A DNA stretch of 60,338 nucleotides from a virus. Taxonomy: Duplodnaviria; Caudoviricetes. Positions 860-29,700 of the stretch are shown here, one piece after another. Position 1 is the stretch's first letter. Each line of letters begins with the position of its first letter. The notes below the pieces were generated by a model. It made no database searches. It saw only the letters and a list, made by a program, of their open reading frames with translations, and was not told where the DNA came from. The stretch spans positions 1 to 60,338 of IMG/VR virus record IMGVR_UViG_3300000401_000002; one strand, given 5' to 3'. The translations under genes and the position numbers were made by a program.

Positions 860-1304
860 TGAAGAAACGCATTACGAATGTAATGCGTCTTAGTTTCATG
901 TAGATTGTTTCAGTCAGACGGAACCTGTTACGGTCCCGTCGTCTCAAAAAAGTGCTTCATGTGAGTTCGCCACCAGCCGAGACTTGGAAGTAGGTGTTTG
1001 TTATACTGCTACACAATGGGCTCTGACCTTTCCCAACCTACGTCGACATCAAAATATAGCTTATAAGCAATAATTTCTAAATTATAGCTAATACACTATA
1101 TTTCTACCTCTCGCTTCGTTCCTGTGCTAAAGAGTTTTTATGTGTAATGTGCAGTTTTTCGACAGCCAACAATCTATCTATACCAACCAGTGAGCCCAAT
1201 TTGTTTGATGGCTTCCTCTCTCTGGAGAGTCGATCAGTATGTTACGTGTGCAGGTATCACCCTAGCCTTTTCCACAGCGGTATTTTCAAACTGGCCCGCC
1301 AACC
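860..1304 (-). ncRNA. Candidate large structured non-coding RNA (~440 nt), family not assigned
   Basis: Only long gap without a credible ORF. GC is locally raised (~49% over 901-1050 by hand count). Helices: 917-925/932-940 (G-U wobble only on the minus strand), 941-945/979-983, 990-995/1036-1041, 1052-1059/1096-1103, 1216-1220/1225-1229, 1277-1280/1295-1298, plus a long-range 7-bp pairing 1017-1023/1192-1198. Ends are approximate. Confidence 0.7.
862..891 (-). terminator. 3' hairpin / possible intrinsic terminator closing the candidate ncRNA
   Basis: Perfect 9-bp stem (ACGCATTAC 867-875 / GTAATGCGT 880-888), followed on the minus strand by a weak U-rich tail UUCUUC. Confidence 0.45.
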
Positions 1305-6535: not shown

Positions 6536-6837
6536 TGGCACAATACGAATCAACTAGTCCGTGGAATAAAACTAATGTAATACAAGGTCAGTATTTGGAT
6601 CTTTTAACTATTAGGCCAGTACCTGCTGAACCTGACGATATTTTATACACGGTGCAAACACAGTATACATACCGTCCTGATTTGTTAGCGTACGACTTAT
6701 ACGGATCAGAGAAATTATGGTGGGTATTTGCACAAAGAAACATGGACGTTATTAAAGATCCGGTATATGATATGGTGCCAGGTGTAAAAATCTATCTACC
6801 AAAAGGCGAAAATCTAGCACAACAACTAGGAATATAA
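6535..6837 (+). CDS. gp53: Baseplate wedge LysM-like protein (T4 gp53-like)
   Basis: YRPDLLAYDLYGSEKLWWVFAQRN...GVKIYLP motif. Confidence 0.8.
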   Translation: MAQYESTSPWNKTNVIQGQYLDLLTIRPVPAEPDDILYTVQTQYTYRPDLLAYDLYGSEKLWWVFAQRNMDVIKDPVYDMVPGVKIYLPKGENLAQQLGI

Positions 6838-6838
6838 T

Positions 6839-9268
6839 ATGGCAGTAAACCCAAATAACGGATCGCAAATAACAGCAAGGGTCAGTAACGAATCTGGCAG
6901 CTCAGTTGCACAAAATGTAACTAATGTAGTTTCTACTTCTAGTAACATTGTTGTTAGTTCCGGAGGTGTAGCTGATACAGTTGTTACTGGAATTGTTGGC
7001 CAAGCAGCACAGCCTGTAGTAGATATTGCAACAAAAGCTACACAAGCCGCAAGTTTAGTTACTAATCCAACATTAGGCGGAGCATTGTCTCTTTTAGGCA
7101 GAGGTTATCCGCCTTATAGAAATGAATTAGATCAATTTGCTTCTTACAATTCTATTTTTACTTTAGGTTGTTTAACTAACATGGAACTAAATTTTCCTCT
7201 TAGTTATAGAACTATGGGCCCTTTAATTAAAGTTATTAAAAGTGGCGGCACAGGCGGAAACAAAATTCCTACTATTTACGAAACTGACGGGAAAGTTGAA
7301 TTTTTTATTGACGATGTAGAAATAAAAAACCACTGCGCACCTAACCCTGGAACTAGATTATCAAATGCAATGACAGTAACATTTAAAGTAACTGAACCGT
7401 ATTCAATGGGCCAGTTTTTACATAATCTAAGAACAGCAGCGTTAGTTGCAGGACATATGAATTATATTGATGCTCCTTTCCTGCTAAGTGTTGCATTTAA
7501 AGGTTATGATGATGACGGAAATGTTAAAGCACCCTTGTTTAGTCAAAGACATTTTCCGATTAGAATTGTACGTGCAGACATGAAAGTAACAGAATCTGGG
7601 GCAGTATACGAAGTTGCATGTGCAGCATACAATGACATGGCAAGTTCTGATACTACACAAACAACTACACAGGATACTGTTATCCAAGGCGACACTGTTG
7701 GTCAAGTGCTACAATCAGGACCTGAAAGTTTAACGGCAAAAATAAACGAAACACAAGCAAGATTACAAAGTGCAGATCAACTGCCAGCAGCAGATCAGTA
7801 CGTGATTAGTTTTCCGCAGTCGGGATTGTTAGATTCAATTGGCGGAACATTTGCATCTCAAATTAATGCAGCAACAGTATCTTTAGGAAATACTTTACAA
7901 GATGTATATGAAGGTATTACTGGTGATACTAGCGGTGAATTCAACTCGGCAGCGGTCTCTGAAGCACAAGCCGAGTTACAAGCACAAACATCTATGTCGG
8001 CATTAGGTGCTACATTAAAAACATCTGCTGATGCTCAAGGTACTTGGAACAAAATAGGAAAAAGTAAAATTGTAGAAGATGCCAACGATCCGGGAAGATT
8101 CCCTTTCCAAGAAGCAGGTTTTGCCGAAGACGAAGAAAATCCAGGATATTTTACTAGGGGCAATCTAACATATGATACTGAAAACAGAGTATTTACATTT
8201 GCTGCTGGGTCGCGAGTACAAGATATAATTGAAGAAGTTGTACTCCTTAGTGAATACGGTAGAGAATTTGCAAGCAGTCAGCCTGATATGTTTGGTATGG
8301 TTGATTGGGTAAGAATAGAAACACAAGTATATAACGGAACTAGTTTTTTAAATGCAGGTGTAACAGGGCAAGACCCTAAAGTTTACGTGTATAGAGTAGT
8401 TCCTTATAAAGTTGATATTTCAAATGTAGCAGCACCTAGATCTGCTGTACTTTCAACTTTTACAAGACAGGCAAGAGCTATTAAATCTTACAACTACATT
8501 TACACTGGACAAAATACAGATATTGTAGATTTTGATTTAAACTTTAATATGGCATTTTATACCGGAGTTCAAGGGTCTAGAGGACAAAGGCAACAAGACA
8601 GTGTATTTGGAAGTATTGCATCCTGGGTAAGAGGTGATCAAGAACCTGCATCAACAACCGGAGGCGGCGGCGCAGGACCTGCTGATGCAAGCGGTGCTTC
8701 TGTAATAAGAAATACAAACGAAACTGATCGTCCTGCAAACGGTGGCGGCGCACGAGAAGGTTCTATAGTAAGTGTTGCACGACAGTTAAACGACATGCTA
8801 ATTCATAGTTTTAACGATATGATTCAAGTTGATTTAACTATTCATGGCGATCCTTACTTTTTAGCAGATGCAGGAATTGGAAACTTTGTAGGTATTGCTA
8901 ACCCGGTAAACAGTATGATTACTATTGACGGAAGTATGAATCCTATTGACGGCGAAGTACATGTTGTACTAAACTTTAGAACACCAATTGATTATGATGA
9001 CGAAAGTGGTTTTGTAAAATATCCCTTAGGTGGCTTCTTGCCTATAGCAATGTTTAGCGGTGTATATCAAGTAATGCTAGTAGAAAATAATTTCAAGGAT
9101 GGTGTGTTTACTCAAACATTGAAATTAAATAGAAAGCGCAATCAAGATTTAACACTAGAAAGTATTGCAAGTGCAATTATTTCAGATCTCAAAGGCGGCA
9201 GAGCAATTGGCGAAGGTACAGAAAACAATAGAGTTGAGCCTGTACCGGAAGCAGGCGAGGATAGGTAA
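6839..9268 (+). CDS. Baseplate hub protein (gp27/GPD-like, extended)
   Basis: Lies between gp53-like and gp5-like genes; C-terminal LTIHGDPYF...SGVYQV...FTQTLKL hub signature. Confidence 0.6.
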   Translation: MAVNPNNGSQITARVSNESGSSVAQNVTNVVSTSSNIVVSSGGVADTVVTGIVGQAAQPVVDIATKATQAASLVTNPTLGGALSLLGRGYPPYRNELDQFASYNSIFTLGCLTNMELNFPLSYRTMGPLIKVIKSGGTGGNKIPTIYETDGKVEFFIDDVEIKNHCAPNPGTRLSNAMTVTFKVTEPYSMGQFLHNLRTAALVAGHMNYIDAPFLLSVAFKGYDDDGNVKAPLFSQRHFPIRIVRADMKVTESGAVYEVACAAYNDMASSDTTQTTTQDTVIQGDTVGQVLQSGPESLTAKINETQARLQSADQLPAADQYVISFPQSGLLDSIGGTFASQINAATVSLGNTLQDVYEGITGDTSGEFNSAAVSEAQAELQAQTSMSALGATLKTSADAQGTWNKIGKSKIVEDANDPGRFPFQEAGFAEDEENPGYFTRGNLTYDTENRVFTFAAGSRVQDIIEEVVLLSEYGREFASSQPDMFGMVDWVRIETQVYNGTSFLNAGVTGQDPKVYVYRVVPYKVDISNVAAPRSAVLSTFTRQARAIKSYNYIYTGQNTDIVDFDLNFNMAFYTGVQGSRGQRQQDSVFGSIASWVRGDQEPASTTGGGGAGPADASGASVIRNTNETDRPANGGGAREGSIVSVARQLNDMLIHSFNDMIQVDLTIHGDPYFLADAGIGNFVGIANPVNSMITIDGSMNPIDGEVHVVLNFRTPIDYDDESGFVKYPLGGFLPIAMFSGVYQVMLVENNFKDGVFTQTLKLNRKRNQDLTLESIASAIISDLKGGRAIGEGTENNRVEPVPEAGEDR

Positions 9269-14200: not shown

Positions 14201-14769
14201 TTGACTACGGAAATGATCTAAACAAAATTAAATCACTTACAGATGAAATTATATATCATCCGGTTAAGTATAAAATACTGTTTGGTTCCGAGGCTAATGA
14301 CGATTTGCAAGCAAGATTTAAAATTGTAAAAAACACCGGTAAAGTCATCAACGACAATGATGTAAAGGCAAGAGTAATTACAGCAATTACTGAATTCTTT
14401 GCATTAGAAAATTGGGACTTTGGTGAAACATTTTATTTCTCAGAGTTAGCAAATTATGTAATGACTCAACTATCTCCTGATATTTCAGCATTTGTGATTG
14501 TTCCAGTACAAGAAAGTCAAGCATTCGGTTCTCTTTACGAAATAAAAGCAGAAGCTGACGAGATTTTTATTAGCGGTGCAACAGTTGACAACATTGATAT
14601 TATAGATGCGTTAACAGCATCAAAATTAAAAGCGCAGGGCGAAGTTGTTCTAAAATCTACAACAGCAAACGTTGGTGTACAAAGTACTACAGTGTCTAGC
14701 GATGCACAAGATATTACAAATGGAATAAGCGGAAGTTCCAGTTCTAGCAACGGAGGTTATAGCTACTAA
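11230..14769 (+). CDS. gp6: Baseplate wedge subunit (T4 gp6-like, extended)
   Basis: DFDNLR...DFNDYVESSE...LELAERRESVLRLARLLSYNP, FSDGVFGNLP, QNRMITGEDY; follows gp25. Confidence 0.85.
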   Translation: MSSTDRQNRLLQTEDWKRVYQSFRNADFQSYDFDNLRRTMIQYLRENYPEDFNDYVESSEYLALIDLIAFLGQNISFRIDLNARENYLELAERRESVLRLARLLSYNPKRNQVANGLLKIDSVRTSEEIIDSNGTNLQNQTIVWNDPANVNWYEQFIKVLNTALPVNGTFGRPNKKETIAGISTEQYRFNSINSDIPTYGFNKTIDGRATRFEVVSTDITDTILEEAPFPGNNFAFIYRDDGKGPSSNNTGFFSHFRQGVLDQGTFTVSNPSSNQTVAIETPNINNTDVWLYDLDSVGNEKKLWTKVDSLEGNNIIYNSVQKNVRDIYSVLTRVDDRISLIFSDGVFGNLPKGNFRVYFRTGLNQRVTVRPKDFRNITVNIPYLSKKGREEKITIVYSLKYTVDNSAISETTSSIKSKAPSTFYTQNRMITGEDYQVAPLGINQQIIKTKSVNRTSSGISRYFDLIDATGKYSQTTLYGNDGVVYKEYQDKVKSFTFTTRTDVEGAVENTIIPILQDVKVRNYYFDKFPRILTRDLNIKWQQTTKDTEFTSGYFSNVDGIPSTLGSFTSSILRLVKEGTLIKFVAPGYVEKENPLDPDTSTNHFDKNGNLVNGPASVVGDTYYKWVKIISINGTGFEEREDGLGAVLVNEVIPTEAILAEIKPPLANDLDAGVKQQLYDQIFAYKVFGLRFDQVEAQWKLVTENNLAIGEAFSTGKTGDTTNQQLDASWLLLFENNGESYSVTYRSMRYVFESDNEIRFYYDSNDKIYDNKTGKVVKDTITVLNINPKDPTADPNPFTQDFKWEIVDAYRDAEGYVDSKKLEVSYYDDDEDGIVDDADLFEEIVSPTVNSTSKYIIFKKYVTEDGVEDFNYYNNENQDIIVLNSKTNIRPFSEYEKDGQVFYYIDEDIFEVLDLTTLKLNLTTDYKARLGRDGIKFRYIHAAGAESRIDPSASNIIDMYLLTKNYDNEFRLWLTQKAGTKPLPPSSDQLYIDYGNDLNKIKSLTDEIIYHPVKYKILFGSEANDDLQARFKIVKNTGKVINDNDVKARVITAITEFFALENWDFGETFYFSELANYVMTQLSPDISAFVIVPVQESQAFGSLYEIKAEADEIFISGATVDNIDIIDALTASKLKAQGEVVLKSTTANVGVQSTTVSSDAQDITNGISGSSSSSNGGYSY

Positions 14770-17700
14770 TGGCTCACGATAACGATCAGAATGAATTCCC
14801 ATTACCAGCAAGTGGAAATGAGAAAAGAACAAGTTCTTATCATCTTCCTAAATATTTTAGAACTGATAAAAACCAAAAGTTTTTACAGTCTACGTTAGAT
14901 CAGTTAATTCAACCAGGCGTTGCTGAAAAGATTAATGGATTTGTTGGAAGAAAAACAGCAAAAGCGTTTTCTGTAGATGACAACTACATTGGCGATGTTT
15001 CTGCTGATAGAGAAAATTATCAACTTGAACCTGTAAGTGTTATAAAAGATACACTAGGCAATGTTGATTTTTATGCTGACTACCGAGACTATATTAATCA
15101 AATTGGTAACTTTGGCGGCATCAATAACAACCATAGTCGAAATAACGCTCAAGAATTTTATACTTGGAATCCGCACATTGATTGGGATAAGTTTACAAAC
15201 TTCCGTGAGTACTACTGGTTACCGAACGGTCCTCAAACTGTTATAATACCAGGTGAAGACAAAGAAATTACTTCTACATATAAAGTTGATCTTAGAGAAG
15301 CACTAGGCGATTATTCGTATGTGTTTACGCCTGACGGGCAAACAAACAATCCTGCACTAAAACTATACAGGGGTGTAACATATGTTTTTGAAGTTAATTC
15401 TCCAGGATTGCCGTTAACATTTAAAACAGCAAGAACATTAGACGAAGAATTTTTAATTACTCAAAACATTAGTGCTCAAGGCGTTGAACAAGGTATTATT
15501 GAACTTACTCTAGGACCTGATACTCCTGCTGAGATTTTTTATGTTGCAGAAAACGATATTAATGTTGGCGGCGTAATTAAAGTAGGCAATCAGTCTGAAG
15601 CAACATTTATTGATGTAGAATCAGAAATTGTTGGTAAAAAATACTATCAAACACGAGATGGATGGAGTCTTACTAACGGTTTAAAAGTTAGATTTGAAGG
15701 TGATGTCAAACCAGAAAAATATGCAAATTCTGAATGGTATATTGAAGGTGTTGGAGACGAAATACAACTAGTATCAGATATTGATGTAGAAGTTTCATTC
15801 CCGGTAGGTATTGACTTGGTCGTACCATTTGACAATGAGGAAGGTTTTGATAGATTACCTTTTGGTACTGCAACAGGTTATCCAAGAGATAAAGATTATA
15901 TTACAATTAACAGAGCAAGCCCGGATGGTAACTTTTGGTCAAGATACAATCGTTGGTTCCATAAAGATGTAATAGAACTAGCATCGTCTATTAATAAGTC
16001 GGATGCACAAGTTGACCAATCACAACGTGCAAACAGACCTATTATTGAATTTGAATCTGGCATAAAACTATATAACTTTGGTACAAAGTCTAAACAAGTT
16101 ATTGATCTAATTGACGATTATACAACTGATGCATTTAGTACAATTGAAGGTAGTTTAGGATACAATATAGACAGTGTTCAATTGAGTCAAGGCATGAGAG
16201 TTATGTTCTTGGCAGATACCGACCCTTTAGTTAACGGTAAAATATTTGAAGTTAATTTTATTAACTTTAAAGGTAGCGGAGTACAAGGACAAATTACACT
16301 TGTGCCGACAGAAGATACAGAACCGTCACCTAATGAAAACGTCCTAGTTACAAAAGGTGATGCATATGCAGGTTCTTTATGGTACTATGATGGCACTGCA
16401 TGGAATCGAGCACAAGAAAAAACTTCAGTAAACCAACCTCCGTTGTTTGACTTGTTTGACGCTAACGGTTATAGTTATTCTGATCTAGTGCAATACCCTG
16501 CTACAAACTTTAGAGGAACTAAAATCTTTAGTTATAAAGAAGGTACTGGAGCAAACGACAGTGTACTAGGATTTCCGCTATCATACAGAAGTATCGATAA
16601 CGTAGGTGATATACTTTTTGATTTTAACTATAATAGTGATGTCTACGAATATCAAGTTAACGATGTTACATTTAATATTAATTCTAAAAACGGATTTCTA
16701 AGAAAGTTTAATAATAGAAATCAGTACAGAGTAATTGGAAGATATGAAAAAGCTGACAGCTTGTCAGAACAAGCTGTTGTGTTAAATTATGTGAACGATG
16801 GAACACGCATTACATATCCAATAAATTGCTATGATAAATCTGCTTTAATCAGTGATATTTCTGTAAAAGTTTTTGTTAATGACAGAATACAAACAGAAGG
16901 AGTTGACTATGAATTAGTTGATAATGCTGATAAGATTAAATCAGTTTCTTTCTTGACAACACTTGCAGCAAATGCTAATATTGTAATTAAAACAAAATCA
17001 AGCACACCTAAAAATGCTAATGGTTTTTATGAAATTGCACATAACTTAGAGCGTAACCCTCTAAACGAAAATGTTTCTTCATTCACACTAGGTGAAGTAA
17101 CAGAGCATGTTTCTACAATTACTGAAAATGTTCCAGGATATGAAGGTATCTTCCCAGGTCCTAGTAACTTGAGAGATATACCAAATCAAAGTCGTTACGG
17201 CAGAAAGTTTATTAAAAATAGTGCTCCTTTGAATTTAGCAATGTTTGGATTGCTAGACAAAGAAAGTAATATAGTTAATTCTCTAAGATATGCAAGAAAA
17301 GAATACAGTAAGTTTAAAAGATTATTTTTAGAGACTGCTGAAACACTAGGTTTCGAAGGTCCTGTAAAACAGCACGTTGATGTAATTCTAAAAGAAATTA
17401 ATAAAGATAAAACAAACAACATGCCGTTTTATTTCAGCGACATGATTGCACACGGTCCAAGTGTTACAACTAGAATCATTGTTGAAGATGCAGATGCACA
17501 ATTCTTTGCATTAAATACACCTTTTACATTGAACAACATTAATACTAGAGCTGTTACAGTTTACATTAATGATGTTCAGCTAGTTCACAAAAAAGATTAC
17601 ATATTCAATGACGAAGGTTACTTGCAAATTACAGCAACTAAAGAATTTAATGACGTCATTGAGATTAACGAATACGAAACAACAAACGGTTCTTACATTC

Positions 17701-20700
17701 CGGCAACACCTACTAAACTAGGATTGTACCCGCTTTACGAACCGGTTATTTACAATGACGATACGTATCCTACTTCACCGTTAATGATACAAGGACATGA
17801 CGGTAGTATTATTAGAGCATACCAAGATTTTAGAGATGATCTAATTATTGAACTAGAGCGTAGAATTTTTAATAATATTAAAGTAGAATACAATCCAAAT
17901 GTATTAGATATTAATAATTACATTAGCGGTAATTATAGAGATACTGGGTTTTCTAGACAAGAAATCTATGCTCCTATGATTACTGATTTTGTCCAGTGGC
18001 TTACTTTAGTTGATGAAGATTACACAGAACACAAGTATTTTAATAGATTAGACTCATTTAGTTTTAACTATAAAAATATGAGAGGACCAAATGGACAAAG
18101 TTTGCCAGGTTGGTGGAGAGGCGTGTACATTAATATGTATGATACAGATCGTCCTCATACACACCCTTGGGAAATGTTAGGATTTACAATTAAACCAACT
18201 TGGTGGAATGAGCAATATGGTCCTGCACCATACACTTCTGAAAATAGATTGCTTTGGGAAGATATTGAAAAAGGAATCATCAGAGAGCCTAACAAACCAT
18301 TTGTAATTAATAAAAAATATGCAAGACCTGGCTTATATCAGTATCTTCCTGTAGATGCAGAAGGAAACTTACTAAGCCCGTCAAATGCAAACTTGCCTGT
18401 AAGTTACGACAGCACAGGAATCGACTCGTCATTTAGTTTTGGCGATAATGCTCCTGTTGAAAGTGCATGGAGAAGAAGTTCAGAGTTTCCATTTGCAATT
18501 CTAACTAGCTGGGCTATAAACAACGCATCTTCTTTACTGTCTGCTGGTTTTGACAGATCAAGACAACAGAGAAATATACTAGGACAGCTAATATACACTC
18601 CTACACAAGATCATATAACTTTGTCAGATCTTATATTCCCTAATACATCAAAAGATTCTTCTGAAGTACTTACAAGCGGATTAGTAAACTATGTTGCAGA
18701 TTATATGGCAAGTAATATTACTTCGTCATTTAAAAAGTATAATAATAGGCTCAAGAGTATTAAAAACTGTCTTGCATTTAAACTAGGCGGATTTACTGAT
18801 AAGTCTAAATTTAAACTTATACTTGATAGCAGAACTCCTTTAAACAAAGGAAATGTATTTGTACCAGAAGAAAATTACAATATTTTCCTAAACACTAGTA
18901 ATGCACTAAAACTAGTAAGCTATAGTGGTGTTATTGTTCAAAAAGAAACAAACGGATTTGTAGTTAGAGGTTATAACACAGAAGCACCTGCATTTAAATA
19001 TCATAAAGCACTTCCTACGTCAAAAGATGTCTTTGTAAACGTAGGCGGAATTAGCGAACCTTACACCGAGTGGGAACCCCTACAAACTTACATCGAAGGT
19101 AAAAATGTACAGTATCAAGGTAGCTTCTTTAAAGTAAAAGAAACACATACATCTTCGGCTAACTTTGATGCTACTAAGTATGTAAAAATTCCTCAGCTAC
19201 CGTTAACTGGCGGAGCTAATGCGTACTTTAGAGATCAGTTTGACACAAGAAACGTTGAACTACTTCCATACGGTACAGTACTACGCACAGTACAAGATGT
19301 TGTAGACTTTATGCTAGGCTATCAAAGCTATTTAGAATCTGAAGGATTTAAATTTGAATACTTTGACGGCGAAGCTGAAACTGTTTCAGATTGGAAAAAT
19401 AGTTGCAGAGAGTTTATGTTCTGGAGTACTCAGAACTGGGCACAAGGCGCTATTATAGCAATGAGTCCTGTTGCTGACGAAATTAACTTTGAAACCGAAT
19501 ACAGCATTGTTGACAATATCTTTGATAACTTCTATGGATATAGTCTATTAAAAGCAGACGGTACAAAACTTACAGACGAATTTACTAGAATCAATAGAAC
19601 AAATCCTAATAAGTTACAAGTACAGCCTAAGAGCACCTTAGACGGAGTTTATTCAGTTAAACTTCCTGTTGTACAAAAAGAACATATTATTTTAGTAGAT
19701 AATTTCAGTGTATTTGGCGATGTAATTTATCAGCCAAGTACAGGTTACAGACAAGAAAGAATTAAAGTTTTAGGTTACAGAACTTCTGACTGGGATGGAA
19801 GTTTAAACATTCCTGGATTTATTTACAATGAAGCTAAAATAACTGAATGGCAACAGTGGACAGATTATGATATCGGTGCATTAGTTAAACATAAAGAATT
19901 CTATTATAGTGCAAAAGAAAAAATATTAGGATCAGCAAACTTTGATGATTCCCAATGGACACGTTTGTCTGAAAAGCCTGAATCTTCTATGACAACAAAC
20001 TTTGAATATAAAGTAAACCAGTTTACTGATTTTTACAGTTTAGATACTGATAACTTTGACATAGAACAACAAGCACTAGCACAACATTTAATTGGCTATC
20101 AAAAGAGACAGTATCTAGAAAATATTATTAACGATGAAGTTAGTCAGTACAAGTTTTATCAAGGAATGATTCAAGACAAAGGTACTAGAAATAGTCTTGA
20201 TAAATTGTTTGATGTACTGAGCAGTGCTGATAAAGAGAGTCTTGACTTTTATGAAGAATGGGCAATTAAACAAGGTCAGTACGGTGCAAGTGAAGGCTTT
20301 GATGAAATTGAGCTTGAATTAGACGAGTCAAAATATAGAGCAGAACCTCAGCCAATACTTCTTACTAACGAAGACACTTTAGAAACTGATTTAACATATA
20401 GAATTAAAGACTTTGAAGTATTTAAAAAGCCGTCTAATTACAATAGCGACATATTGCCTAAAACTGAACTATTACCTCAATACACTAAAACTGCGGGATA
20501 TGTTCATTTAGATGATGTTTCAAAAGCACTAGGTGATTACTACGATATTTTAGACCAACCGTTTGGCAGTATTAAAGCAAATGCATATGTTTGGATTAGT
20601 ACAGAAAAACAATCATGGAATGTACTACAACATAAGAGTACTAAATGGCAAGTGTTGTCAGTGGAAGGCAACGCACAAGCAATTAGTATTGGTGCCGAAA

Positions 20701-23700
20701 ACAAAAACCAATTTGTTGTTACATTGAATAATGCACCTGACGATATAAGCAGCGGAGACGTAATTGGTCTTTACGATCTAATTGTTACAGATAGAGCAAC
20801 AGTTGACAGTACATATCCTATTTCAATACAAAGCACTGAGCCAGTTGAAGGTTTCTATAAAGTTCTAGATGTAACTTTAAACAAAGTTATTATTGAAACG
20901 ACAGATGTAATTGAAGATATACCTTCATGTGATGGATCAATAACTAAATTTATTCCAGTTAGGGTAGCTGACTACAAAGCAGCTAATCAACTTGCACAAA
21001 AAGGTATTGATAGAAATACACTTATTTGGGTAGATGAAGATGAAAATGGTTCTTGGAAAGTATTAAAGAATTCACAGGCATATAGTTTACTACAAAAAAT
21101 ACCTGCAGAAGATACAGGAGTTAACAATAATTTTGGTCAAACTCTTGCAATTGACGGCAGAAACGTTACAATGGCATTGGCTTCGCCTACTGCCGACGGC
21201 AACGGAAAAATATTCATGTATACTAGAGGTGGTAATAACCAAAACTTCCAGTTTACACAAATTATTGAACCACCTGAAAACTTGTCAGATGGCGGAATTG
21301 CATTTGGCGAAGGTGTTGCTATAAGTTCGGATGGTAAGTTTATTATTGCAGGATCTCCGGATGCATCTAATGTAAAAACTAAATTTAGAGGAAACTACGA
21401 TCCGACAGCTGATTATGAAAATGACGAAATAGTCAAATACAGTGACAGCCTATGGCAAGCTCTAGTAGATATTGAAGGTGCTAGGGCAAGTCAGCCGTTT
21501 GGCAGCTTTGGATCAATAATTGAAGTATTACAAGATAATAATATTACACAAGGTGAAATTGAGTTTAACAGTTTGTTAGTAGGAAACTATCCGTTTACTA
21601 ACCAAGATGATCCTACAGATCATATACTAGTTAGAGCACCTGCAGATGCATATGTTGCTACCGGCAAAGGAGATGAAGTTTTCTTAGATTGGTACCTAAC
21701 AACTAGTGCTAACCAAGAAGCACCAGATACTCCAAGACAACCGTTTGATGGTGCATATACTGCTATTAACGAAGAATATCTAGAAAGCGGACTTACTGTA
21801 GTTGAAAAAGTTGATGCTGTTCTTTATGTTAATAGTGTAAGTACTGTTCCTGGTTTAGATCTACAAGTAGACACAATAGGTGCAAGTGGATATGTTGCAT
21901 ACACTTATACTGATGAAGGTAGAACTACAATTTATGTAAAAGGGTCTGTAGGTAAATGGCCTGTATCAGGATCACTATTCTTAGAAACAGGAGAATTTGT
22001 AGGAGAGTTCCAGCGTGTTGCACCTGTTGAAGAAGAAGTTGACACTAGTGATGTGTTAGGTGGTTACTGGTGGTTTAACACTAACGAAGAATATACAGTT
22101 ACTAATACTATTGATGACGAAGGTAGAGCACTTGCAGTTTATAATGTTATACCTTTTGGTAAAGCAGATCCGGGTGCTGCTGGCGGAAACGTAATAGATT
22201 ATAAAAATGACGACATCTTTAGCGGAGAAAATAGTCAACATTCTTATATTAGAACATTAACATATCAAGGTTCTCCAGGTGCTTACGGAGAATTAGATCC
22301 TATTGTAAGTGACCTATTTGTAATGAGAGCACCTAAGTCTTTAACTGACAAAATTGAAATAGGTGATACTATCGGTGTTGAAGTATATAGATTGCCTAGC
22401 TACATTGACGGTTCTTTTGTAGACATTACTCCGACAGGACTTACACAGTTTACAGTAAACAAAAATCATACATTAGTTGGCCTTTGGGACGGATACATTG
22501 ATTTTGAATTAGAAAACACTGACGACTTTGGTAGACCTTATGAGCCTAGAATAGGACAGTTTGTTAGAGATAGAGTTACTGGTGCAACAGCAAAAGTTGA
22601 ATTTTATCAACGAAACGGTATTAACGCAACTATCTTTGTAAGCAACAAAGTAGGCGACTGGTCATTAGGAACTAATCACGGTGCTAGTGCAGACATTGAA
22701 TTCTTAGGTGATCCTTCAGATCCTGGCACAGTATATTCTGTAACTAGAACATTAGGCGATATTAAAGCCACTTCTCTAGGACAAGATGCTTTAGGAATTG
22801 GTAAACTTTGTGTATTCCAACTACCTGCATTTATTGAAAATGTTCCAGCAAATGATACAATTACAGATGCAGAATATGTTATCTATAAAGACTTTGAAAT
22901 TTTAGGTTTGCCTACAGATCCAAATATACCAGATCAGATTAACTTTGACTGGAGAGAAGTTTATAGAATTCCTGCAGATGGCAACGGTGCAAGCAACAAC
23001 TTGTCTAACTATGGTATGTTTACGGTGTTTGCAAGAGAAAACATTAGTACATTTACAAGTGTTGGAACGTTTGTTGTACCTGATGCAATTGAAGGTCTTG
23101 GCCTCGGCAGCAAAATTAAAATGTCAAAACGCAATGACTTGTACAAAGCATTTATAAGTTGTAGAGGAAACGGTACTTCAAGCAATCCTGGTAGAATTTA
23201 TTTTGTAAACAACGGTACAGATGAAGAAGGCGTTGAATATAACTGGGAACTTGCAAAAGACAAGAGATTCAAAGGTGAATTTGCTCCTGAAAGAAATTAC
23301 TATGTAGGAGATATTGTTTTCTTAGATGGCGAGTTCTATACAGCAAAAACTAACATCCAAGGTAACACAGCTAATCCAAATGACCCTAGTGCGCAGTTTA
23401 ACATTTTAGACTGGGATGTGTCAACTAGCGATAGTATTAGAAGTGTTGATTTCCTAGGCTACGTTCCAAACGATACTCAATATGTTGCAGGAAATGATAG
23501 CTCTCTACAAATATCTATGGATAACCTTGTAGAATTTGGACAAGAATTTGATGTAACAGATAACGGAGAAGTTTTAGTAGTAGTTGCAAGATACGACGGA
23601 GAACCAAATAGAGTAATTGTTTATAGAAATCAAAATGACAACTATCAAAAGTCTCAAGAAATTCTTGCTGATGATGTAAACAGTGAATTTGGTAATAGCA

Positions 23701-26700
23701 TTAGTATTAGCCAAGACGGAAAATTAATTGCAGTCGGTGCACCTAATGGTGATACTACTATAGAAGAATCTGGAACAATTTATATCTACAAACAAGTTAA
23801 CGGAACTTTTGAACTATCGCAGACACTAGTAAGCACTGCTCCTGTAAGAGGAGAATACTTTGGCGGCGAACTAGATTTTGACGGTAATACATTATTTGCT
23901 AGTGCATTTAATGCTAATAGCGATGATATTACAATGTTTGACGGTTATAGAGATAGATTGTATCCTGGATCAACTGTTTCGGGACAACAATATATTCTAG
24001 ATACTGATAGTGAAATTGTAGAAAGAACAACATTTGATAATGGATTTACAACATTTAAAAATGAAATTGCAAATAACGGTGTTGTTTATGTTTATGAAAG
24101 AATTAACGAAACACTAGTATTTGGACAAACGCTAGACTTTAATGATAGCAAAGCAAAATTCTTTGGTAGAAACATTACTGCTAAAGGTAATCACATTTAC
24201 ATGTCATTGCCTAAGTATGCAAACACTGACGGTAAAGAAGGACTAGTACTAGACTATAGAAGAGATATAACTAACCCTGTATGGTCAATTTATAGACAGC
24301 CTCAGATGCCAGTTGATGTTTCTAAAATTAAACGTGTAATGCTTTACGATAAAGAAAAGAATGTTGTAGTAGAAAATCTAGATTACATTGCAGTTGATCA
24401 AGGAAAAATTGCAGGCCCTGCAGATCAAGAAATTCGTTATAAAACAATGTTTGATCCGGCGATCTACAACAGCGGCACTAGTAAAAATGTAAGAATAAAT
24501 GAGTTGACTAATTGGGGAGAGCAACAAGTTGGCCAAGTTTGGTGGGATTTAAAAACTGCAAAATTCTATGACACTAAACAAGGTAACATAATTTACAAAA
24601 CTAACAACGTGAATAGACTTGCACCCGGAGCGTCAATTGATGTTTACGAGTGGGTAGAAAGTAAAGTACTGCCTGAACAGTGGGATAACATTTCTGATCA
24701 ACCAGAAGGTGAGCGTAATGGTATTACTGGTAAATCTTTATATGGTAATACAGCTTATGTTGAAAAGCGTGTTTATGACGAAATTGCACAAAACTTTAAA
24801 AAGTTATATTACTTCTGGGTTAAAGATAAAACAAATATACCAGCAGTTGAAAATAGAAGTATCAGTGTACAAACTATTAAATCATTAATAGAAGATCCGG
24901 ATGCAGCTGGCTACAGATTTGTATCTTTCTACGGCAACGGCGAAATATCAGTCCATAACTGTAAAGAATTGATAAACAATAAAGATATTGTAATGAATAT
25001 ACAATACTGGACATACAGCGAGCCTGGAAGCAATATTCATAACCAGTATCAAATTTTAACAGAAGGACTTGGCTCAAGCAAGCCTTATGCAGAGATCGAA
25101 ACTAAATGGATTGATAGTTTAGTTGGATACGATGCTCAGTCAAGACCTGTGCCTGATACTAGACTTTCACCTAAAGAAAGATATGGTATCCTAAACAAAC
25201 CACGCCAAGGATGGTTTATTAACAGAACTGAAGCACTAAAACAAGTATTCGAAAGAGTTAACAATGTTCTAATAGACAATTTAATTGAAGAAGAAAAGAA
25301 CATTACAAAACTGCTTGATAATGATCCAGCTCCAAGTCAAACTACAGGTTTGTTTGATGTTGTCGTAGATACAGAAATTGATCTAGACTTTATTGGTGTT
25401 GCTCGTGCTGCAACAGCAAGTATAACTCCTGTAGTTGAAAACGGTAAAATTGTTAGATTAACAATTGAAGACGGTGGCCGCGGCTATAGAGTTGCACCGT
25501 CGTATACAATTGAAGGTACAGGATTCGGTGCAGAGTTTGAATTTACAATTGATGAGCTAGGTAGAATTACTTCTGCAGAAGTAATTGAATCAGGAAATAA
25601 CTATTCTAGTAATACATCTATAATTGTACGTCCATTTGCTGCCCTAGTAACTGCTGACAGTCAGATTAGAGGTAAGTGGGCATTGTATAACAGAAACGAT
25701 GCAACTGGCGGTTGGCTAAGAATTAACAGCCAAGCATACGATGTAACAAAATATTGGACATATACTGACTGGTATGCAGAAGGTTATAATACATTTACAG
25801 AAATTGATCATGTTATAACTCAAAGTTATGAGTTAGAAAGCCTTGACGATAAATTTGGCGACATTGTAAAAATTCTAAATGTTGGCGGCGAAGGATGGTT
25901 GCTACTTGAAAAAATTGACAGCCAGGATACTACTGATTATACAATTAACTATAAAACTATTGGTAGACAAAACGGTACTGTACAATTTACAGAAAACTTG
26001 TATAATCTACAAGATAGCAGAGTAGGATTTGACACTCAAACATTTGATACACAGTTCTTTGATAGTCAGCCTATAGAAGAAATTAGAATTATAATGCAAG
26101 CATTAAAAGAAGATATTCTTGTAGATGATCTTGCTGACGAATATAACAAGTTGTTCTTTGCAAGTCTGCGTTATGTATTTGCAGAACAAGGTTATGTAGA
26201 CTGGGCATTTAAAACTAGTTTTGTTAAAGCAAGACACAATGTAGGTGAGCTTGAACAAAAAGTTACATTTAAAAATGATAGTCTAGAAAGTTACGAAGAT
26301 TACATTCAAGAAGTTAAACCTTATAAATCTTCTATTAGAGAATACTTGTCAACATATGATACTGTAGAAAACAGTTCTAGTATAGTTACTGACTTTGACA
26401 GTCCTCCAAAATATGATAATGTTACACAAAGCATTGAAACAAATAACATACGTCTAATTAACGGAGTACTGACAGGACAAGGCGATAGATTTGTATCTTA
26501 TCCTGAAAAGTTCTGGTTAGATAATGCTGCATATAAAGTTATTAGAATTGAAATCAGTGATGCAGGAGAAGGTTATACTTTTGCACCAACTATTGAAATT
26601 GAAGGAAATGCAAAGGCCGAAGCAAGTTTAGGACCAGGTGGAAAAATTTCTAGTGTAGTTGTTACTGATCAAGGTAGCGATTATCTTGTTACTCCAGAAA

Positions 26701-29700
26701 TTACAATTAATGGCACATTAAACGAAAACGGCAGAGAAGCTAAACTTACTGCGGTATTAGGCGAAAGTAAAGTAAGAAACATGCATACTATTATCAAATT
26801 TGATAGAGTATCTGGTAAGTTCTTTATTACACAGCTGAACGAAGAAGAAACATTTACTGCTAACGGTTCGCAGACTGAGTATGTATTAAAATGGCCAATG
26901 GACATGAGAACCACTGCTGTTGAAGTCCTTGTTAATGGCGAACTAGTATTGAATAGCGAATACGATTATGAAAATATTTACGATCCTAATACTTTACTGT
27001 ACTATGGTAAAATTAGTTTTGTAGATCCGCCTAACAATGGATTATCAGTACAAGTTAACTATAAAAAGTCTATTAATTTACTACAAGCACAGGACAGAAT
27101 TAACTTGTTCTACGATCCAACAAGTGGACAAATTGGTAAAGATGTTGCACAATTAATGGACGGCGTTGACTACGGCGGTGTTGAAGTTAAAAGTTTTGAG
27201 TTTGGATCACCTCCAGGTTGGGATACAGGTAACTGGTACGATGGACAATGGGACGTTTACGATGATACGTTTGAAGAAGAAGTATTCGAAACTGACGGAT
27301 CGACCCTAGTATTCAATCTTTCTAAACCATTAGAAAGCGGTGTCAAGTACAACGTATACATTAACGGTATTAGAGTAGATGACGAAGCATGGGACGGAAC
27401 ATCTAGCGTAGATAACAAAAATGCTTTCTTAGAAACTCTAGTAGGTGACGGTGTTACTGATACATTTACTATTGAAAACGAAAACGGTTACAGAACATTC
27501 TTAGAAAATAATACAGATGGTGCTGACAATCCTCCGTCACAAGTTATTAAAATTATTAAATCTACATCAGACGGATCGAGACTAATTGATTCTGAGAGTT
27601 ATGATACTGATATTAGCGGCGGCGACCTAGCATATACTACTGCTAAAGGTATTAATGCTGATGAAATTAATATTGACGGTGATGGGTTTGTTACAGAAAC
27701 AACTTCTAAAGGACCAGAAGAAGTTGTTCCGGGACAACTATTAGATACTCTAGATATTACAGTTTACGAAAGACCAGTTGGCGGAAGTAGTTTAATACAA
27801 ACTACACAGTTTACTGGCAATGGTACAACTAAAACATATAATCTAAGACAACGTCCTTACAGTTTTGAAAGTGTTATTGTAAAAATCAATGGTTCTATTG
27901 TTAGTGGCACAGACTATAAAATAGATTACAACACTAATGAAATTACTTTCTATGCTGCACCAAGTGTAGGAGATAATATCGTTATAATCAGTATGGGTGT
28001 TAGCGGTAATAATATACTCGACTATGACGAGTTTACTACAGACGGTAGTACACAGGAGTTTTTAACTAATGTAAACTACACCGAAACTGCTCATGCATAT
28101 GTAACTGTTAATGGTGAAGAAATTCCATTTGAATTACTAGAGTCTGATGATACATATGCAGAATCTGGCAGATGCGTTATTAGATTTGTAACTGCACCGA
28201 TTGCTGATAAATTGATACAATTTGCAATATTTGATAGTGCAATTGAATCCTTTAGTAAAGTTTCTATTGAAGAAATTGAAGCAGACGGTAGCACTATTGC
28301 ATATACTTTAAATAGAGTTCCTCTACAGCAAGATCCAGTTGCGTACCATACTATTGTTATGGTAGACAACAAAGTATTAAATGCAGGATACAGTGAACAA
28401 TTTACAGTTGCAGATGGTCAGACACAGTTTAGATTAAAAGTGTGGCAAGTTCCTGTAGGAACTGTAGAAGGTCGAGAAATTGAAGTATTCCTAAATGGAA
28501 GAAAATTAGAATTCTTACAAGAATGGACTTATGAAGGTGCTGGATCATTTAACCCGGCAATTACTCCAGATGCTCAGCCAGGAAGTACTGTTATCCTAAA
28601 CAGAGGTGTTGCAGTAGAAGGCGATGAGTTAAAAGTACACATTATTACAAGTGGTGAATATAGATTTGGTTACTACGATTCTAATAATGAATGGGTAGAT
28701 ACTTCCGGTGGCGATAGTACTCCAGCGGTACTATACTTTGACGAAGCACCTGCAGAAAATTCAACTATTAGAGTGTATCAGTTTACAAATCATGACAGTC
28801 AAGGAATTGACAGACAAAATTATGATGTTATTGAGCGTACAGAAATGACAGTAGGCTCTGAAGGCTATGTAGAATATAGACTATTAACAAATGGTATGAT
28901 AACTCTAAGACAAGAAGCACTTGGTGTCGATTATGTTTGGGTTAATCTAAACGGAAGATGGCTAACACCAACTGCTGATTATGTTCTATTAGAAAACAGA
29001 AAAACAATCAAGTTTGTTACTCCGTTGTATGAGAACGATGTTATTGATATTTTACACTTCTCGAACCCGCCAGTAAGTGTTAAATTTGGTTGGAGACAGT
29101 TTAAAGACATTCTCAATAGAAATGTTTATAAACGTCTTGATAGAGATGGATACTACGAACTAGCAGAACCATTAAACTGGTATGATAGAACAATTACACT
29201 GGTTGAAAAAGAAAATGGAAACTTACCTGAACCATCAACTAATCGTCCAGGTATTGTGTTTATTAATAAAGAGCGTATCGAATATCTACGTAAAGAAGGC
29301 AATGTTCTAAAACAACTACGTCGAGGTACTGCTGGAACAGGTATTCCTGAAGTGCATCCTGTAGGATCTGAACTTGTAAACCAAAGCATTGATACTACTT
29401 TGCCTTATAAAGATTCAGAAGAGCAAGTTGTTGTATTTGCTGGAAACTATGTTGATTTAACAACAAAGTATGATACTGATCCTTCAATTACATTTGACGG
29501 CATTGCTTATAACTTTAACAACAATACTGTATTTCCTCTAGGAGGACAAGTTGCAACAGTAAATGGCAGTGGCTTTAGACCTACAGTAAAAGCGTTAATG
29601 CAAGACGAAAATGGTAATGTACAAGAACTACAAACAACATATGTAAGCGAAACACAGTTTACATTTACTACAGTTGCTATGCCAGTTGGCGCATACGACT

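Follow-up and report, generated by a model that had tools for sequence, protein, structure and literature searches.

A new family of large pseudoknotted RNAs carrying twin matched motifs, encoded 3′ of a GIY-YIG gene in uncultured T4-like phages

ROOL and GOLLD are large ornate RNAs that often occur in phages and prophages. Large structured RNAs without known function are rare, and past ones proved to be ribozymes, riboswitch-like sensors or self-assembling cages. Here we describe a new family of RNAs of about 430-520 nucleotides (nt) that lie directly 3′ of a GIY-YIG gene in a clade of uncultured marine and estuarine T4-like myophages. The RNA was studied in a 60,338-nt stretch (the window), a 60-kb fragment of an IMG/VR viral contig from a T4-like myophage. 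There it occupies positions 1315-861 of the minus strand (~455 nt), from the 5′ strand of pseudoknot PK1 to the end of the U-tract of a putative terminator, as delimited by conservation and the covariation model. All coordinates are positions in the window; the RNA is read on the minus strand and they are written from high to low. With ROOL and GOLLD it shares a length of several hundred nt, many helices, pseudoknots, variable arms, a phage location and a function that is not known. It differs from them in having no match in Rfam 15 and in its host range, which is that of marine T4-like myophages. It also carries twin identical motifs, to our knowledge not a feature of ROOL or GOLLD.

A cmscan search of the whole window against all 4227 families of Rfam 15 gave no matches at gathering scores. 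We take this release to include ROOL, GOLLD and the other large RNAs HEARO, OLE and raiA, and none of their models was matched at that score. When positions 600-1500 were compared with Rfam at E≤10, the sole match was a chance small nucleolar RNA (E 7.9). An earlier note, made from the letters of this DNA alone, had proposed a large ornate RNA resembling ROOL and GOLLD, or possibly a new class. The proposed kinship is not supported by cmscan, and the suggested likeness of the segment UGACUGAA to ROOL has no backing there; the suggestion of a new class agrees with the lack of any Rfam 15 family at threshold. As to group I and group II introns, no core model was matched, the flanking genes are complete and unrelated, and no guide complement was found. 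There was likewise no Rfam match to RNase P RNA or tmRNA, and ARAGORN detected neither tRNA nor tmRNA in the window. No prior description of the RNA was found in the literature (open-access full text). It is almost certain that this is a real and new structured RNA.

Relatives were collected in two ways. From a gp46-based scan of IMG/VR the best 80 of 597 relatives were kept as loci, and blastn matched the RNA region in 53 of these, at up to 85% over ~520 nt. An exact conserved 17-mer of the RNA was present in at least 120 further IMG/VR stretches, and the two sets combined yielded 106 distinct full-length copies. The RNA is conserved at 72-85% DNA identity in related loci. A covariance model of its 3′ domain (R1) was built from an alignment that includes the window, which itself scores 166.6 bits. 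R1 matched 41 of the 80 gp46-anchored loci at E≤1e-3, and these are referred to as type A. Among the 39 loci without an R1 match, 33 extend at most 553 nt past the last match to an upstream gene and hence end before or within the RNA, and six carry a divergent type B at the same place.

The minimum free energy (MFE) of folding had a z-score of -2.23 for the minus strand, with 2 of 100 shuffles folding as well, versus -1.09 for the plus strand. Single-sequence folding gives a weak signal, and the folding-energy check suggested in the earlier note returned a signal of that kind only; it is the homologues that decide. An alignment (A2) of the window and 42 homologues, 43 sequences in all, was made with MAFFT; the homologues were drawn from 83 sequences with the canonical 5′ domain by a greedy choice such that none shared ≥84% identity over ≥330 nt. 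A hand-curated model was put on A2 by window coordinates, and 61 pairs in 13 helices were counted. Of the 2591 cells of this model 98.2% were paired, compared with 89.8% in shuffles, and none of 500 shuffles reached this value. Changes on both sides were seen at 27 pairs (16.7 in shuffles) and in 229 cells (71.6 in shuffles), and the covariation score was 0.307, against 0.154. When the partners were slid by 1-3 columns, pairing fell to 34-42% and the covariation score to 0.03-0.06. At six positions G-U was more frequent than any other pair. Read from the opposite strand these would become A-C mismatches; this fixes the strand as minus, as had been argued earlier from a G-U pair. The longest sense open reading frame (ORF) in the RNA has a median of 36 amino acids (aa), and 673 of the 881 gap runs are not multiples of three, so the region is non-coding. 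The homologue search in IMG/VR that had been proposed as a check thus found compensatory changes, and the large ornate pseudoknotted phage RNA predicted on the minus strand is borne out by covariation among homologues. P2a, P9, the second half of the long-range helix and the terminator were left out of the formal count because they are poorly aligned by MAFFT in A2 (45-73% paired); helices outside the count are supported by inspection of individual sequences.

The RNA consists of two domains, a 5′ domain (P1-P4) that PK1 locks and a 3′ domain (P5-P10), and a long-range helix that crosses P7 clamps them. The best supported helices are PK1, P3, P4, P5 and the long-range helix 1146-1142/1014-1010, and at least two pseudoknots are real, PK1 and the long-range helix. 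The 5′ strand of PK1, CCAACA (1315-1310), lies in the last codons of the GIY-YIG ORF, PK1 starting 8-13 nt ahead of its stop codon. Its partner, 1171-1166, forms the loop of the P4 hairpin (1178-1161; stem 1178-1174/1165-1161). PK1 is 99.6% paired, with four of its six pairs changed on both sides, and P4 99.1%, with all five pairs so changed. In locus L117 PK1 is kept by a fully compensated change (ACAGAA/UUCUGU). The 5′ strand of the long-range helix (1154-1142) comprises the segments 1146-1142 and 1154-1151 and pairs with 1014-1006. Four pairs of 1146-1142/1014-1010 are 97% paired and all of them are changed on both sides, while the fifth is 80% paired. The second segment, 1154-1151/1009-1006, is misaligned by MAFFT, and its paired variants are evident by sequence. 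Covariation of this unusual richness, which takes in two or three pseudoknots, makes the RNA suited to cryo-EM and biochemistry.

The long-range helix is not the one that had been predicted. The earlier note had paired UGGGCUC (1198-1192) with GAGCCCA (1023-1017) inside the loop closed by GUAGGU/ACCUAC (1041-1036/995-990). These sequences, like every other motif in its list, are where it placed them, and the topology stands, in that a 5′ segment does pair into the GUAGGU/ACCUAC loop. The named helix is not supported: UGGGCUC:GAGCCCA is 71.7% paired compared with 71.4% in shuffles, without a pair changed on both sides, and UGGGCUC belongs to an insertion in the P3 tip that is missing from many homologues. 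The CCCA of GAGCCCA pairs locally with UGGG (97.7% paired, two compensatory cases), and the true helix, 1146-1142/1014-1010, lies a few nt 3′ of the one proposed. The enclosing helix GUAGGU/ACCUAC itself, P7 in our model, is 99.6% paired with one pair changed on both sides. In the first alignment RNAalifold had instead joined GUAGGU to AUCUAC; locus L057 breaks GUAGGU/AUCUAC, which supports ACCUAC as the partner.

The second main feature of the RNA is a seven-base motif, ACAUGAA in the window, which had already been seen to occur twice. Copy 1 (962-956) follows CUC in the loop of P9, and copy 2 (901-895) follows UCU in the linker before the terminator-like hairpin. Each copy is preceded by three pyrimidines, and both lie in regions unpaired in the model. 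The two copies match exactly in 105 of 107 type-A sequences, across 11 different 7-mers. A second parse found identity in 105 of 106 type-A sequences, as compared with a mean of 51.3 and a maximum of 61 in shuffles. In type B either GAAUAAU (34 sequences) or GAAUGAU (7) is present in both places, so that 41 of 44 are identical; the other three differ by one base. At least 13 different 7-mers are thus kept matched across the two types. When mutual information was computed against all alignment columns, the best partner of each variable position was the same position in the other copy. A weak excess of identity extends to position -5 and to two bases beyond the motif. The motifs covary by identity, not complementarity. 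We know of no precedent for twin motifs that do so, and they provide a concrete, falsifiable handle on function.

Among the 105 matched type-A sequences all except 4 have U-G-A or U-A-A at positions 4-6 of the motif, as do both type-B variants. Each copy thus resembles three pyrimidines, a sense triplet and a stop triplet, and no reading frame leads in. Three simple roles for the motif were considered and rejected. Coding or translational bypass fails for lack of a conserved reading frame. A start codon as the target fails in type B: the complement retains AUG in most type-A variants, but GAAUAAU gives AUUAUUC. Self-pairing between the copies relies on the CAUG palindrome and fails for the CAUA variants.

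The spacing between the copies is constrained, at 49-68 nt for type A and 56-58 nt for type B. Identical direct repeats are typical where DNA must recombine or one protein binds, and on this ground, together with the constrained spacing, the motifs could belong to DNA rather than RNA, as an origin of replication, a site of recombination or iterons on either side of a hairpin. We consider this very improbable: the covariation obeys RNA rules, with many G-U pairs on one strand only, and no recombined (deleted) form was present in the 106 parsed type-A sequences or in RNA contigs.

The explanation that we tentatively favour is a new ornate RNA that displays two matched specificity elements. We infer that the GIY-YIG transcript includes the RNA as its 3′ portion and that the RNA stops at the 888-861 hairpin. 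Its ornate fold would be a scaffold that presents the two matched stretches as specificity elements, and one partner, be it an RNA in trans, DNA or the complement of the other copy, would read both copies by base pairing. A change in one copy would then be tolerated only when the other copy follows. Such a display-and-pair mechanism, proposed from sequence comparisons, is possible rather than probable. A shared partner, or the reading of one copy against the complement of the other, is favoured because it is the simplest source of identity across the variants and because both copies are unpaired. In a more specific and unlikely form of this idea, the RNA would function by reading one copy against the other's complement, or by reading the two copies with a single programmable guide, as in strand exchange, template switching, or a ribozyme or RNA-protein machine cutting and rejoining at a pair of interchangeable sites. 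If true, this would be a new RNA device with identity covariation as its signature, reprogrammable by 7 nt in two places. Should a partner or a cut-and-join reaction be found, it would represent a new principle of RNA-based recognition in phage-host biology.

Several observations weigh against the display of two specificity elements. Exact and wobble scans for a complement of the motif in cis, from -900 to +700 and from -4200 to +3000 in 105 loci, found none that is consistently placed, and the one recurrent complement site, at +15, does not track the motif. There is no excess of complements in trans in the 60-kb window (13 versus 15 expected; 59 versus 60 for an extended pattern) or in L117 (13 versus 14 expected). 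The two copies also share changes that wobble pairing would tolerate, such as A to G at position 3, which is more than simple pairing with a fixed partner requires, and 7 nt is short for specificity. Because an exact 17-mer served to collect the homologues, the invariance of the P8 loop may be overstated. RNA-library contigs may derive from DNA and show presence rather than strand or ends, so that transcription is unproven. Two further searches also gave negative results. By eye, only about three of eight ACAUGAU-class sequences retain the UUCAU that follows the terminator hairpin. A third co-changing site could not be isolated either, since sequence pairs that differ in their motifs share at most 88% identity and are too distant for this.

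Metatranscriptomes had been named as a check in the earlier note, and the sequences are indeed present in them: six RNA-library runs hold 13-15% of the sampled words, and contigs of four of these runs (4 of 4, four studies) match parts of 864-1765 with a likeness of ≥85%. In run X20 two contigs are unbroken across both motif sites. No joint between the two motifs was seen in the RNA contigs, which drop rare forms. In the four runs there was no contig cover at 782-863 or 1848-1900, gaps that do not count as evidence of transcript ends.

A self-processing ribozyme could provide another reason for two identical sites. Its fold would bring two equivalent sites, each made of three pyrimidines and the 7-mer, to one active site, and the RNA would cut at both, perhaps also joining or circularising, and free a piece of ~58 nt carrying P10; identity would be needed since one internal guide must accept both sites in turn. 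The RNA has a large pseudoknotted core, and the helix crossing P7 recalls the topology of catalytic introns. The two sites share the same layout at the constrained spacing given above, and a nuclease gene adjoins, as in mobile introns. In addition, a candidate second pseudoknot, PK2, would place site 2 beside the P7/P8 core. In PK2 the sequence UGACU (916-912) pairs with the P8 loop GGUCA (1028-1024); it is 99.1% paired, but none of its pairs changes on both sides. Type B retains both strands, and we regard PK2 as plausible but unproven. Nevertheless a ribozyme appears improbable, as no internal guide complementary to the motif was found, no Rfam ribozyme or intron matched even at E≤10, and no flanking gene is split, gp46 being complete at 590 aa.

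The remaining helices of the 5′ domain are as follows. P1 (1300-1276; stem 1300-1296/1280-1276) is 100% paired with two pairs changed on both sides. P2 (1275-1246; stem 1275-1273/1248-1246), also 100% paired and with a UA/AU swap, encloses P2a (1266-1261/1254-1250), whose variants are visibly compensatory and which, being misaligned in A2, is 73% paired there. P3 (1240-1180; stem 1240-1234/1186-1180) is 98.3% paired, with three pairs changed on both sides. Its variable tip carries the insertion with UGGGCUC and a CUCUC/GAGAG hairpin, described earlier as CUCUC-CAGA-GAGAG, which covaries within the subset of homologues that have it.

In the 3′ domain, P5 (1134-1108; 1134-1131/1111-1108 and 1127-1126/1114-1113) has the invariant loop GGAACGA and is 95.7% paired, three of four pairs being changed on both sides. 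It is followed by the variable arm P6 (1104-1051), AU-rich and folding as one hairpin in the MFE structure. The view that the AU-rich arm (1103-1052) is a variable insertion was correct: the length of P6 ranges among homologues from 8 nt, as a GC-GAAA-GC hairpin, to ~80 nt. P7 (1041-990) encloses both P8 (1035-1032/1020-1017) and the 3′ strand of the long-range helix (1014-1006). P9 (983-941; stem 983-977/947-941), recognized earlier as GUCUC/GAGAC, appears in the MFE structure of 85 of 107 homologues with many compensatory variants. The P10 hairpin (940-917), previously recorded as GACGGGACC-GUAACA-GGUUCCGUC, is 98.4% paired and is replaced by a different GC-rich hairpin in type B. P7, P8 and P10 are almost invariant in type A, with few compensatory cases, and consist of other complementary sequences in type B. 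The window belongs to type A, as it has P7 enclosing P8 with the GGUCA loop, P9, P10, UGACU and the twin 7-mers after CUC and UCU.

Between P6 and P7 there is a near-invariant linker (1050-1042) that contains the self-complementary sequence GUCGAC. GUCGA is invariant in A2 and in a further alignment, A3, and when the last base changes to U the sequence still self-pairs. This would fit an architectural RNA of the ROOL or GOLLD kind, forming RNA-only or RNA-protein multimers in which the motifs and GUCGAC are symmetric contacts. The size, the ornateness, the phage context and the variable peripheral arms are all in keeping with such a role, and multimers are reported for ROOL, GOLLD and OLE (bioRxiv 10.1101/2024.12.08.627333). 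We think it an unlikely role here. Many motif variants, for example ACAUAAU, are not self-complementary, so pairing between copies cannot explain their identity, and the ROOL and GOLLD models were not matched.

The RNA closes with a terminator-like hairpin (888-861; 888-880/875-867) whose stem covaries and which is followed by a U-rich tail. The consensus scan for terminators listed this hairpin on the plus strand only, and the minus-strand tail is no more than moderately U-rich. About 45 nt past this stem there is a conserved hairpin (815-796), unique in the window, made of a stem, tandem G-A/A-G, two G-C pairs and a GNRA loop. Its outer stems covary (AGUUU/AAACU versus GUGUU/AACAC), it is 84% paired in A2, and it could either extend the RNA at the 3′ end or be a signal of its own. 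A small hairpin (794-776) precedes the sequence TATAAATA (775-768, minus strand), which lies ~30 nt upstream of the ORF starting at 739 and which we take to be a match to the T4 late-promoter consensus.

The closing hairpin and the position of PK1 could also indicate an element acting in cis, that is, a 3′ untranslated region (3′UTR) or leader that stabilises the GIY-YIG mRNA, couples its translation to folding or attenuates the downstream genes. Because PK1 takes in the final codons of the ORF, a ribosome that terminates there has to melt it, and a terminator-like hairpin is what would close such an RNA. However, ~450 nt with at least two pseudoknots go far beyond the needs of these roles, and in L117 the RNA stands alone. 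The downstream gene also differs between phages, as no match to the window ORF 2-739 was found in any of the 106 loci, and in the window this gene has its own late-promoter-like TATAAATA. We therefore rate a purely cis-acting element as quite unlikely.

The genes around the RNA are those of a T4-like phage. The minus strand encodes a gp55-like late sigma factor (5641-4808), gp47 (4752-3742), gp46 (3745-1973), a basic 67-aa ORF (1976-1773) whose ATG overlaps the gp46 stop, and the SegE-like GIY-YIG ORF of 149 aa (1754-1305), which shares its last codons with the RNA. The GIY-YIG protein matches Pfam PF19835 (E 2.7e-35) over residues 3-123, and a PDB sequence search with it gave nothing significant. 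The 67-aa ORF is kept in most loci at 37-87% identity; neither it nor ORF 2-739 has a family in Pfam or PHROG. The RNA occupies the 565-nt gap between the GIY-YIG stop codon (1307-1305) and the next ORF (739). Baseplate genes are found on the plus strand of the window, and amid the baseplate and tail genes there is one ORF of 5153 aa (14769-30230, plus strand). The window record is listed as 12% complete at 60 kb, so that the full genome would be very large; contigs of relatives measure up to 145 kb.

In 104 of the 106 distinct loci the GIY-YIG gene immediately precedes the RNA, at 51-91% identity, and is itself preceded by gp46 and gp47. Identity of gp46 across the loci is 52-87%, that of GIY-YIG follows it, and by this comparison the GIY-YIG gene behaves as a vertically inherited core gene. 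The near-constant adjacency, and the start of the RNA inside the ORF, would suit an RNA that is the partner or guide of the nuclease, with the variable 7-mers supplying the targeting; the protein has a catalytic domain and no evident DNA-binding domain. We hold this to be a rather remote prospect. The protein family is widespread without the RNA, being present in 823 phage records including Methylophilales phage Melnitz, and in L117 and L125 the RNA occurs in another context without an adjoining GIY-YIG gene. Moreover, no known guide resembles one of 7 nt that is present in two identical copies. Melnitz is the closest cultured phage by the GIY-YIG protein (70% identity). It has only 148 nt after the gene, and R1 found nothing on its whole genome (141 kb; best E 0.88). 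With the protein lacking the RNA in Melnitz and the RNA lacking an adjoining gene in L117, the two are separable.

The L117 RNA (6690-7050 of that locus) follows a terminator-like GC-rich hairpin, with no ORF running in, and keeps the CAUAAGG start. L117 has a direct repeat of 10-13 nt in a shifted register, before AUCU and not after it, and the second copy is half-buried in a local hairpin. About 20 loci (e.g. L009, L014, L017, L018, L038-L040) have another, shorter 5′ domain in place of P1-P4, and their match to the GIY-YIG protein stops at residue 137; they seem to retain the 3′ domain as well as the pairing into the P7 loop. Type B was located in L045 (6440-6914), L049, L062, L071, L079 and L080, where R1 gives weak matches (14.7-23.9 bits), all at the homologous spot, and in 72 further stretches (L250-L321). 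It has the same layout with different P8 and P10, and its long AU-rich arm comes after P8, not before P7.

Overall, the RNA is present in hundreds of contigs from marine, estuarine and salt-marsh viromes. The 565-nt region had no blastn match in 50,697 cultured phage records. Cellular genomes contained 49 exact matches to the 17-mer, compared with ~140 estimated by chance, and only three of these are real. The three (L200, L241, L247) have gp47, gp46, the GIY-YIG gene and the RNA, and are filed under a Crocinitomicaceae and a Neomarinimicrobiota metagenome-assembled genome; they are phage contigs binned into bacterial genomes, one of them 335 kb long, and being misbinned they give no clue to the host.

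Apart from ROOL and GOLLD, four known systems have features in common with this RNA. Group I introns with a GIY-YIG homing gene, such as T4 td with I-TevI, also have a GIY-YIG ORF running into a structured RNA, a core pseudoknot from crossing helices (P3/P7) and pyrimidine runs before two special sites. Here, in contrast, there is no model match, split gene or internal guide, and the GIY-YIG gene appears vertically inherited. In the omega RNAs of TnpB and IscB a structured RNA likewise overlaps the 3′ end of a small nuclease ORF, and a scaffold flanks a short variable stretch. The present nuclease is GIY-YIG rather than RuvC or HNH, there are no transposon ends, the 7-nt stretch is internal and occurs twice, and protein and RNA also occur apart. 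With small RNAs derived from 3′UTRs the RNA shares the layout of a 5′ seed and a terminator, formed by copy 2 and the 888-861 hairpin, and 7 nt is a typical seed; it differs in the 400-nt ornate fold upstream, which holds a second identical seed. Finally, in the T4 gene 60 bypass two matching short sequences ~50 nt apart flank a hairpin, again in a T4-like phage. Gene 60 offers a precedent for selection on identity rather than complementarity; the present region has no reading frame and folds as a covarying RNA.

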